A DNA stretch of 64,000 nt. It comes from Trypethelium eluteriae. Lineage: Eukaryota. Position 1 is the first letter of the stretch; the number at the start of each line of letters is the position of its first letter. Positions 554 to 6,217 of the stretch are shown in pieces. The notes below the pieces were generated by a model. That model saw only the letters and a program-made list of their open reading frames with translations. It ran no database searches and was not told where the DNA came from. The translations under genes were made by a program, and so were the position numbers. The DNA lies in the NCBI GenBank assembly GCA_051942245.1, contig JAVECL010000013.1, positions 1-64,000 on the forward strand, written 5' to 3'.

Positions 554-1836
554 TTACACCTTATGGCCAACATCAGCCAAGCTCAACTTCAAGGAGTCCA
601 GCGCGCGGTCGATGTCATCCCTCTTCGGATCAGTCACGCTGACGCCCATGTGGCCGAACCGGATATACTTGGTCGCAATCTCCTTGTGCAGCCCTGCCGC
701 GAAGATAACGCCGCGCTTCAACAAATTCGGGAGAATTTCCGGAGGTGTGACACCTTCTGGCAAGTACATCGTCGTCATGCCATTGGCCTGATTCTCGGGC
801 TTCGATGCCAGCTGCTTCAGGCCGAGGTCGGTGACGGTCTTTTTGACCTTTTGCGAGGTTGCTCGGTGGACGGCGAACCGTTCAGACAGCGGCTTGGAGA
901 GTATCTGCGTCAGGGCTGTATGCAGGGCATGAATCAGTTGCGGAGACGGAGTAGCAAAGTACGACGCCTTTTTTGCTTCGTAATTTTGCATGACTATGTC
1001 AAATGTGTCAGCTTAGTCAGATTGCTAAGATTTCGGCACACTTAGTGTGGAACTAACTTGGTAGCCAGTTTTGCCAGGACCCAAAATACGATGCGGGCCG
1101 TGTTTTCCTGTCCTTGAATCGCTGAATAGCGCGTCCCGACGCCATGACGATACTGAGACCAGCAGGGCAACCGATAGCTTTTTGGCTTGCAGTGATAACA
1201 GCATCCACTTTCCAATCATCAAATCGGAGCTCCTCACAGCCAACACTGCAGACACCATCTACAATGAGAAGTGTTTCCGGACTGACTCTCTGAACGAGCT
1301 TGGAGAGACCCTCGACTTCACTGAGCACACCGGTAGATGTGTCGACATGCGTAACAGTGATCAGCTTGTACTGTTTTTCTTTCAATGCCTTTTCAATCTC
1401 GTCCAGCTGAGGTCTGTCTCCTATTGGCGCCTTCAATTGAGTCGCTTTGACGCCATAAGTCTCAAAGCAATCTGCGAAAGAATCTGCAAAGTATCCAGTA
1501 TGCAGAACGAGGACTTCGTCACCCTTCTCTGCGAGATTGGCGGCAATTTGGTCCCATCCGAGCGTGCCTGAGCCGGAGATGACGAACGGCTGAGAGGCAG
1601 GGTCACTAGTTTGGAACAGTTTCCGCAGCATGGTGAGGGTTTCTGAAAAGCATTGCACGAAGGGTGGTCCAGTATGAGCTTCACTAAAGATGGCCATCCC
1701 AATTAGCGCAATTTGTGAGATTATTGTATTCGGAGGATCGGAATTACCTGTAGTGACCCATTGATTGCAGCACCTCATCGTCGAACTCTACCGGCCCAGG
1801 TATGAGGAGTGCCGGGTGTGGTGGTTGATTAGACAT
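554..1836 (-). CDS. AGX1: Alanine-glyoxylate aminotransferase (class V PLP-dependent aminotransferase), 3 exons
   Basis: Exons 1836-1748, 1683-1058 and 993-554 are joined by GT-AG introns. Motifs: LLIPGPVEF, SGSGTLGWD, THVDTSTG, VDGVCS, TASQKAIG (PLP lysine), IRFGHMG. Ends GHKV. Confidence 0.93.
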
Positions 1837-2393
1837 TTTGATAGTCTTTTGAACGGATTGTAGACTTTCGTTCTGCTCCGAGCTCCTCAAATGCGGTTTT
1901 CCCAAAGGATCATCGATATCGTCGTCTTTTTCTGACTGGCGCTCGGTGGAAAATGGTGTATTCAACTCAAGGAGGGGTCGCTGCTCTAGGTGTCTCGCGA
2001 TGAGGCTCAAGCGAGGTTTTGCGCGTGGAGCCAGGATGGAAGACGTTGACGCGGCGGGGTAAAGGCGGCGGGCGAAGATTCGGGCGGCCAGGATGCCGGT
2101 ATGATTGGATCTAAGGTAGGTGGTACGTAGCTGCGGAGATCAGAAAGGGACTTTGACGCGTGGGCTTTACAGGACCGCGAATTTATGTTGGGTTGAAGAT
2201 TTTCTCTGCCTGTGTTGACCAGAAACACGCCGGGCGCGCCGGAGCTCCAGAGCAAAGACTTTGCGCCGCTGTCGCATCTCCGCCACTTCAACCTCCACTT
2301 GCTTAGTTCTAGCCTCAACGGTGGACCTCTTCTTTGAAGTGCGATTCTCCTAATTCATGCGCCAGTTTCTGGCGCTGTTATTGGACGGTTGCC

Positions 2394-5282: not shown

Positions 5283-5683
5283 CTCCCCGTCTTGTGGCTT
5301 CCCCCACCATCCACCATCCATTCAAAGCCTGCTGCCAGGCCTAGCCTAGATCATTTGCTAAACCAGCCATATATCTCCATCTTCCCCTCATATTATGCTA
5401 TCGTCTCAGAAGACTGGGCCTTGATAACTCGTCCGTTTCCTCTGCTTCTCCACCAGACGTTGCCATTATCATACTCAAGCGGCCCAACACCTCCGTTCCT
5501 CACTCTTCTCTACCATCGTTTCTCGTCTCCACGATCAAATTTCTCTTCTCTACCCTCTTATATCCCCGGCACATCCGGCTCGACCATCAAAGCTGCCATT
5601 TTGAACGCATTCCTTGTCTACTGGGGATCTCAGCTCAAGTTTCACTTCAATCTTCGCCATCTAATTCTTAACACTGTCGAGGC

Positions 5684-6217
5684 ATGTTAGAAGAGATGGA
5701 CTGGTCTCATGACTTTTGCTTGGCCTGTGACAGGCAAACTATGGACGGCGAGACGTATTGCTCTCAGGCTTGTAGACTGGCAGACCTCGAACGTGCTTGC
5801 AGTCTATCACTCTCCTCGACTACCAACTTTCAGAAACCAGCGGCGTCACGGTCAACCTCCCAGAGGAGTCCAACGACTACGAGTAGTGGTTCAGGCTTTC
5901 ATCTGCCTCCCGCTGTAAATTTTGCTGCGTACAAAAGCGGTCACCAAAGCAGCACACAATCGTCTGGCGCAACGATACACAGTCGATCAGCTCACGGCTC
6001 GATGGGGTCCACAGTTCCAGTCCAGGCCTCGACCGCTGGTTCTTTTTCAAGTTCGGAACAACGTCTTACACCCTCTTCTTCTGGCACCTCTCTGTCTTCC
6101 ATGTCATCGTTGGCAAAGGACAGTGTATCCTCCGAGGAGGTCCGTAATGAGCTCCTAGGCTACTACGCTGCCTTTGATCAGACTCGGGACTGGAAGAGAC
6201 GTCGGACACTATTTTAA
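5684..6217 (+). CDS. Ecl1-family (extender of chronological lifespan) zinc-binding protein
   Basis: N-terminal DFCLACDRQT...YCSQACRLAD four-Cys motif, Ser-rich low-complexity body, C-terminal ELLGYYAAFDQTR. The start may be the second ATG (5696). Confidence 0.8.
   Translation: MLEEMDWSHDFCLACDRQTMDGETYCSQACRLADLERACSLSLSSTTNFQKPAASRSTSQRSPTTTSSGSGFHLPPAVNFAAYKSGHQSSTQSSGATIHSRSAHGSMGSTVPVQASTAGSFSSSEQRLTPSSSGTSLSSMSSLAKDSVSSEEVRNELLGYYAAFDQTRDWKRRRTLF

Follow-up and report, generated by a model that had tools for sequence, protein, structure and literature searches.

The closest precedent for the gene described here is the 6-phosphogluconate dehydrogenase Pgd1 of Ustilago maydis, in which about 2% near-cognate initiation yields a form with a PTS2 (PMC7214817). 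The alanine-glyoxylate aminotransferase (AGT) gene that we analyse resembles Pgd1, as that source describes it, in having a PTS2 in an apparent 5' leader that holds no in-frame AUG, conserved near-cognate starts and a putatively cytosolic AUG form (PMC7214817). The two differ in enzyme and in phylum, and the candidate starts of AGT are strong-context CUGs 19 codons apart, whereas those of Pgd1 are an adjacent AGG-AUU; unlike Pgd1, AGT also has a presequence-like segment between the starts, an extension of 66-85 residues and a second conserved motif (PMC7214817).

Other systems share part of this arrangement. Fungal enzymes with dual starts and mitochondrial and cytosolic forms, such as aminoacyl-tRNA synthetases, use a weak AUG in some species and a near-cognate codon in others, and have, as AGT appears to have, a leaky upper start, a strong lower AUG and a presequence between them; however, they use two starts for two destinations, whereas AGT would use three, with a PTS2 between presequence and enzyme (PMC7049704). 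In Aspergillus nidulans one gene, idpA, likewise gives mitochondrial, peroxisomal and cytosolic forms, but by alternative transcription starts and a C-terminal PTS1 (PMC3798809). Watermelon Hsp70 has an organelle presequence before a PTS2, and two in-frame starts choose between them, although this is a plant plastid case and the passage describing it mentions neither a non-AUG start nor a third, cytosolic one (PMC3798809). Within the same enzyme family, mammalian AGT varies in its distribution between mitochondria and peroxisomes and Magnaporthe AGT1 is peroxisomal; both have a C-terminal non-canonical PTS1, and the passages on them mention no N-terminal PTS2 or non-AUG start (PMC3798809, PMC3338719). 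In a search of mainly open main texts we found no published non-AUG or PTS2 extension of a fungal AGT, though tables of ribosome-profiling and non-AUG surveys may list the gene, and five peptide strings from the extension had no occurrence in the literature searched.

Results

The AGT gene and its surroundings

The window, that is, the whole stretch of DNA analysed, comprises 64,000 nt of Trypethelium eluteriae (assembly GCA_051942245.1, contig JAVECL010000013.1, positions 1 to 64,000). The gene and its 5' region are laid out as follows.

554..1836, minus strand: AGT/AGX1 coding region, three exons; the protein ends in GHKV
1747-1684 and 1057-994, minus strand: AGT introns
2092..2393, strand-neutral: interval of about 300 nt to the head-to-head gene; shared 5' region, the neighbour beginning at 2394 (+)

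By domain and homology the gene product is a class V aminotransferase of the AGT/AGX1 type. It matches Pfam PF00266 (Aminotran_5) with an E-value of 7.7e-18 and 65 bits against a cut-off of 21.5, its homologs in the protein search carry the name alanine-glyoxylate transaminase, and in the predicted monomer fold the core has pLDDT mostly >90. The closest named record, P0001 from Viridothelium virens, has no mismatches to the spliced core and one residue different in the extension described below. The AGT query found a single match in its own genome.

The AGT transcription start most likely falls within 2092..2393. The head-to-head neighbour (2394 onwards, +) has a calcineurin-like phosphoesterase domain, presumably of a VPS29-like protein, and also stands beside AGT in 33 of the 80 related loci; only about 300 nt are left for the promoters of both genes. 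Elsewhere in the window, an ORF at 5672-6217 (+), which we take to resemble the Ecl1 family, has an N-terminal CxxC...CSxxC motif and is preceded by a long region that is GC-rich and then pyrimidine-rich.

A conserved coding extension upstream of the AUG

The AGT frame continues above its normal start, with the following elements.

2140..2142, minus strand: in-frame stop TGA bounding the extension
2089..2091, minus strand: site 1, distal CTG in ATC-CTG-GC; putative start of a 469-aa form (presequence, PTS2 and AGT)
2035..2091, minus strand: 19-residue presequence-like segment between the starts (LAARIFARRLYPAASTSSI)
2032..2034, minus strand: site 2, proximal CTG in ATC-CTG-GC; putative start of a 450-aa PTS2 form
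1987..2013, minus strand: PTS2 nonapeptide RLSLIARHL, fitting (R/K)(L/V/I)x5(H/Q)(L/A)
1939..1962, minus strand: NTPFSTER motif, after the PTS2; N, T and P invariant in 23/23 rows of alignment A2
1837..1938, minus strand: variable acidic/polar linker, with no in-frame Met in relatives
1887..1913, minus strand: out-of-frame ATG and 8-codon upstream ORF, ending above the main AUG
1834..1836, minus strand: canonical AUG (AAA-ATG-T), start of the 384-aa form

An earlier sequence-only reading of this DNA had described 101 open codons without an in-frame ATG between the TGA at 2142-2140 and ATG-1836, and two CTG codons in the same ATC-CTG-GC context 85 (CTG-2091) and 66 (CTG-2034) codons up; recomputation returned the same values. 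The 35 residues that it called acid-free from CTG-2091 are so, the first acidic residue being at position 36, and the 16 residues from CTG-2034 are likewise acid-free and basic. Stop-to-first-Met runs of at least 101 codons number 8 among 518 in the window, and the PTS2 consensus is present in 5.8% of shuffles of the extension. The open frame and the chance odds of the PTS2 are thus not decisive by themselves, and it is conservation in relatives that settles that the extension is real.

Searching with the extension and exon 1, we found that 61 of 75 protein matches cover at least 63% of the query. A profile search gave 735 matches, the best 120 of which were listed and include Pleosporales, Dothideales, Aspergillus, Penicillium, Talaromyces, Onygenales, lichen fungi, Helotiales and Geoglossum; we take these named records to be Dothideomycete, Eurotiomycete, Lecanoromycete, Leotiomycete and Geoglossomycete. 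No Sordariomycetes, yeasts or basidiomycetes occur among the named matches in the best 120 of 735; protein records are blind to a non-AUG extension. For related DNA we used the best 80 of 257 stretches from a metagenome scan, which together with the window make 81 loci, and these form 38 clusters at 80% nucleotide identity. The query that ranked these loci included the extension, so lineages without it are under-sampled; because of this bias, because the clusters are related to one another, and because we had seen the data before fixing the zones and the start candidate rule, the p-values below are descriptive.

Frame and codons of the upstream regions are under strong constraint in this related DNA. 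That the extension is conserved protein-coding sequence, and not an untranslated leader, is well supported by these comparisons. Its conserved core is RLSLI(S/A)RHL followed by NTPFSTER, and the PTS2-to-AUG distance is 44-70 codons in relatives. The NTPFSTER motif is about as well conserved as the PTS2; it shows no packing in the monomer model, which is of low confidence here, and could be a processing, phosphorylation or co-receptor site. RNA structure downstream of the starts was unremarkable, with z-scores from -0.28 to 1.50 in four windows and no unusual structure below any start in these windows.

The nonapeptide has the pattern of a PTS2

The sequence-only reading had taken the extension to be a mitochondrial presequence. 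Its account of the residue make-up stands, but it overlooked the nonapeptide at residues 27-35, which is the most conserved element of the extension and fits the PTS2 consensus (R/K)(L/V/I)x5(H/Q)(L/A) (PMC7214817, PMC3798809). A strict match is found in 37 of 38 clusters and in 76 of 81 loci, the exceptional cluster ending in Ile, and in 113 of 136 protein records with the downstream motif. Over the 38 clusters, position 1 is R in 37, position 2 L in all 38, position 5 hydrophobic in 38, position 8 H in 38 and position 9 L in 37; the fixed positions vary synonymously, while position 3 takes five residues, Asp included. At the sequence level, this is how a receptor ligand selected as protein would be expected to vary. 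If the CTGs are used as starts, the nonapeptide lies at residues 8-16 from CTG-2034 and at residues 27-35 from CTG-2091, and in 24 protein records a Met start lies within 13 residues of it. We consider it very probable that RLSLIARHL works as a PTS2, and peroxisomal targeting by the extension appears well supported.

The matching receptor is encoded in the same genome (Pex7, G000:C133, L082), with 3w15_A as best PDB match at an E-value of 2.1e-73 and the next at 6.9e-19; it is 87% identical to a named Pex7. A complex predicted for a stand-in Pex7 (P0151, 87% identical to the organism's own) with the 36 residues from CTG-2034 had a score of 0.03 and a mark of 0.34, in a prediction that used no alignments and had no co-receptor in the model. 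One of six thiolase-family loci scanned reads M-x6-RLSQVTSHL at a putative N-terminus after an ordinary ATG, and the offset of this signal (from residue 8) is the same as in the CUG-2034 form of AGT.

L084 (G000:C1268), about 784-831: thiolase-family gene with N-terminal PTS2 RLSQVTSHL

A different division of labour was proposed by the sequence-only reading, in which the extension is only a presequence and any peroxisomal pool is the AUG form with a weak C-terminal signal; the nonapeptide would then be part of the amphipathic helix of the presequence. In agreement with this, the stretches of 35 and 16 residues read from the two CTGs are acid-free and basic, and a C-terminal Magnaporthe AGT1 fragment ending in QKA sent GFP to peroxisomes (PMC3338719). 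However, presequences keep no fixed His at a set spacing from Arg-Leu, whereas here the His is present in 38 of 38 clusters and position 3 accepts Asp. The C-terminal HKV, which had been called at best a non-canonical PTS1, indeed does not match (S/A/C)(K/R/H)(L/M/A), and a canonical PTS1 end was found in 0 of 59 full-length homologs, whose C-terminal tripeptides vary widely. We therefore find the presequence-only account very improbable. The AUG form may carry a weak non-canonical C-terminal PTS1, but a peroxisomal form would most likely come from the extension, because the PTS2 is its most conserved element, CTG-2034 is the better kept start and the PTS2 lies at residues 8-16 from it.

Two CUG codons are conserved as probable starts

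We counted as a start candidate an ATG in any context, or a CTG or GTG with a purine at -3 and G at +4. Equivalents of site 2, in frame and no more than 13 codons above the PTS2, are present in 37 of 38 clusters (CTG in 20, ATG in 12, GTG in 5), with 1 and 0 in the other frames. For site 1, 14-36 codons above the PTS2, the equivalent is in frame in 31 of 38 (CTG 19, ATG 9, GTG 3), with 3 and 2 in the other frames. Control zones held such candidates in only 2-3 of 37 clusters further upstream and in 0 of 38 downstream. CTG-2034 is thus the better conserved of the two starts (37/38 against 31/38).

Codon choice, counted without choosing sites, goes the same way. In the near zone, which covers the first 13 codons above the PTS2, 20 of 23 Leu codons before G are CTG; the figure is 21 of 41 in the 23 codons beyond and 46 of 212 in the core exon. 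Near-zone Leu not before G uses CTG in 1 of 14; Val-Ala uses GTG in 5 of 5 near-zone cases versus 2 of 33 in the core. The near-cognate starts have A at -3 in 22 of 22 cases at site 1 and 20 of 25 at site 2, and C at +5, a position outside the candidate rule, in 47 of 47 (22/22 and 25/25). The earlier proposal that the extension is coding and CUG-initiated gains from this pattern, in which near-cognate codons are kept beyond what the amino acid needs and CTG, GTG and ATG are swapped only for one another. Both CTGs behave as start codons in these comparisons, and the CUGs are very probably used.

Site 1 is the more variable. In 7 of the 38 cluster representatives the zone searched holds no in-frame candidate for it: it lies just outside the zone in L035, a C follows the codon in L003, it is changed in L052-L054, being present in cluster mates of L052, it is in another frame in the L005 group, and it was not found in L045, L065 and L068, of which L065 is without both sites. 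In L005, L009-L013, L015-L018 and L021 an upper AT(T/C)-CTG-GC persists 50-56 nt above the PTS2, in a frame other than that of the enzyme, as checked in L005 and L021, which suggests that the long form was lost there or its start turned into that of an upstream ORF.

An extension joined by splicing to an upstream AUG exon would need no CUG initiation, and database models use such exons. In P0001 the model starts at an ATG at 2277 and removes an intron at 2170-2006, and a PTS2 form made by alternative splicing is known for Candida Gnd1 (PMC3798809). However, the P0001 acceptor is a GAG inside the PTS2, so that its first three residues are removed, and the same place is YAG in only 6 of 38 clusters. 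There is no conserved acceptor above site 1, with at most 4 of 31 clusters sharing one place, and in 31 of 31 the frame is closed by a stop 2-73 codons above site 1. Nor would an internal Leu stay CTG, or swap only with GTG and ATG. The N-termini of the models also disagree widely between species, as expected since predictors must find an AUG; P0008 and P0015 enter the nonapeptide at another point than P0001. On these comparisons the spliced model is unlikely, and we assign it a very slight probability. The earlier statement that standard annotation would miss the isoform needs qualification, since many models include part of the extension, but they reach it through inconsistent upstream exons. 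In P0001, P0008, P0015, P0097, P0111 and P0120 unrelated N-termini are joined to the extension, and the first three of these cut the PTS2.

Seven records on contigs of 1.5-2.6 kb (P0011, P0039, P0044, P0052, P0056, P0061 and P0136) read through both intron positions with the extension present, P0039 reaching 34 residues above the PTS2. They are probably spliced mRNA, because nearly every genomic locus has intron 1, although L068 is without it, and the existence of intronless genes in some lineages weakens this argument. The RNA records, 3 contig records from two small-share runs, include none over the extension and count neither for nor against the model. In the predicted monomer fold of P0001 the extension is low-confidence except for a helix at residues 31-42; little follows from this, because the first three PTS2 residues are missing from P0001.

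The segment between the starts resembles a presequence

The presequence make-up that the earlier reading saw from CTG-2091 recurs in relatives. Between the starts, a span of 12-25 residues, there are 0 acidic among 594 residues in 31 clusters, against 22 of 594 just upstream (p 3.9e-7). The hydrophobic moment is 0.57 versus 0.42 upstream (p 2.8e-4), and Arg is modestly enriched (88 versus 62, p 0.03). Processing-peptidase sites follow a rule of Arg at -2 or -3, and R-x(1-2)-[YF]-[PS], a motif picked after viewing, occurs in 12 of 31 segments versus 3 of 31 controls.

These features could be read in two ways. Both CUG forms might be peroxisomal, or the longer one ambiguous, with no real mitochondrial isoform and site 1 serving as a redundant entry. 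This would fit the greater lability of site 1 relative to site 2 and the PTS2, and the PTS2 is retained in the CUG-2091 form (residues 27-35); in Pgd1, two near-cognate codons give one peroxisomal form (PMC7214817). However, a redundant start needs no spacer free of acidic residues and with a raised hydrophobic moment, nor would it account for the excess of the R-x(1-2)-[YF]-[PS] motif over controls. We regard the reading with two peroxisomal forms as fairly unlikely. A mitochondrial destination for the longest form, from CUG-2091, is instead probable given the composition of the segment, and is made less certain by lineages in which that start has been lost or disrupted.

ATG depletion and start contexts point to leaky scanning

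The main ATG has a purine at -3 in 37 of 38 clusters. Where site 1 is an ATG its context is weak, with a pyrimidine at -3 in 8 of 9, whereas site-2 ATGs have a purine there in 9 of 12. The extensions hold only 2 out-of-frame ATGs in 8835 nt over the 38 clusters, versus 123 in 14850 nt of core (8.3 per kb), and a count this low was reached in 0 of 500 synonymous resamplings (means 31.6 and 20.7). The window's ATG-1913, in poor context (T at -3, A at +4), is one of these 2. Down to the normal AUG, relatives have no in-frame Met in 2110 codons. Read together, the ATG depletion and the start contexts are the sequence marks of leaky scanning through the upper starts to a strong AUG.

We also considered that the same three forms are chosen mainly by alternative transcription starts, as is known for idpA of Aspergillus nidulans (PMC3798809). 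The mostly good context of the site-2 ATGs speaks for this: little would leak to the lower AUG in those lineages, so that output should shift to the PTS2 form or a second transcription start would be needed. In contrast, ATG is depleted in all frames, the site-1 ATGs are weak and CTG has been kept in preference to ATG, all of which implies that scanning has to continue past the upper starts; selection mainly by transcription start seems to us quite improbable.

In L024, L037, L039, L041 and L043 the usual Met before Q-x-x-H-P is lost, and a good-context ATG 13 codons further up seems to replace it.

Discussion

We propose a ladder of three starts that would lie on one shared mRNA. Scanning ribosomes would start with low efficiency at CUG-2091 and next at CUG-2034, most of them initiating only at AUG-1836. 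The 469-aa product of CUG-2091, with a basic, acid-free presequence before the PTS2, would go to mitochondria; the 450-aa product of CUG-2034, with its PTS2 at residues 8-16, would go to peroxisomes via Pex7; and the 384-aa product of AUG-1836, without either signal, would be mainly cytosolic. Transamination of glyoxylate to glycine would thus take place in up to three compartments. The ladder as a whole, with three starts and three compartments reached by leaky scanning, has in our judgement a somewhat better than even chance of being correct. A broader version has a somewhat less than even chance: we suggest, tentatively, that the ladder of two CUGs and one AUG, with a presequence stacked on a PTS2, extends across the main filamentous ascomycete classes sampled, with ratios set by start-codon stringency and re-set by lineage.

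If true, the AGT leader would be a form of non-AUG PTS2 targeting in which two separated near-cognate starts select stacked mitochondrial and peroxisomal signals, and for which we found no example in print; AGT would be the second fungal enzyme with non-AUG PTS2 targeting. The leader would also be a natural three-output reporter of start-codon stringency. For databases, the N-termini of many AGT models are spurious, some of them cutting into the PTS2.

For the fungi themselves, the ladder would make start-codon stringency the determinant of how glyoxylate detoxification is divided between mitochondria, peroxisomes and cytosol, a division that stress could shift. Exchange of CUG, GUG and weak AUG for one another, or loss of the upper start, would let lineages adjust the ratios. 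This would be a fungal counterpart of the changes of location seen in mammalian AGT, whose presequence is made from an upstream AUG, and it predicts the sites at which moulds and lichen fungi convert glyoxylate to glycine.
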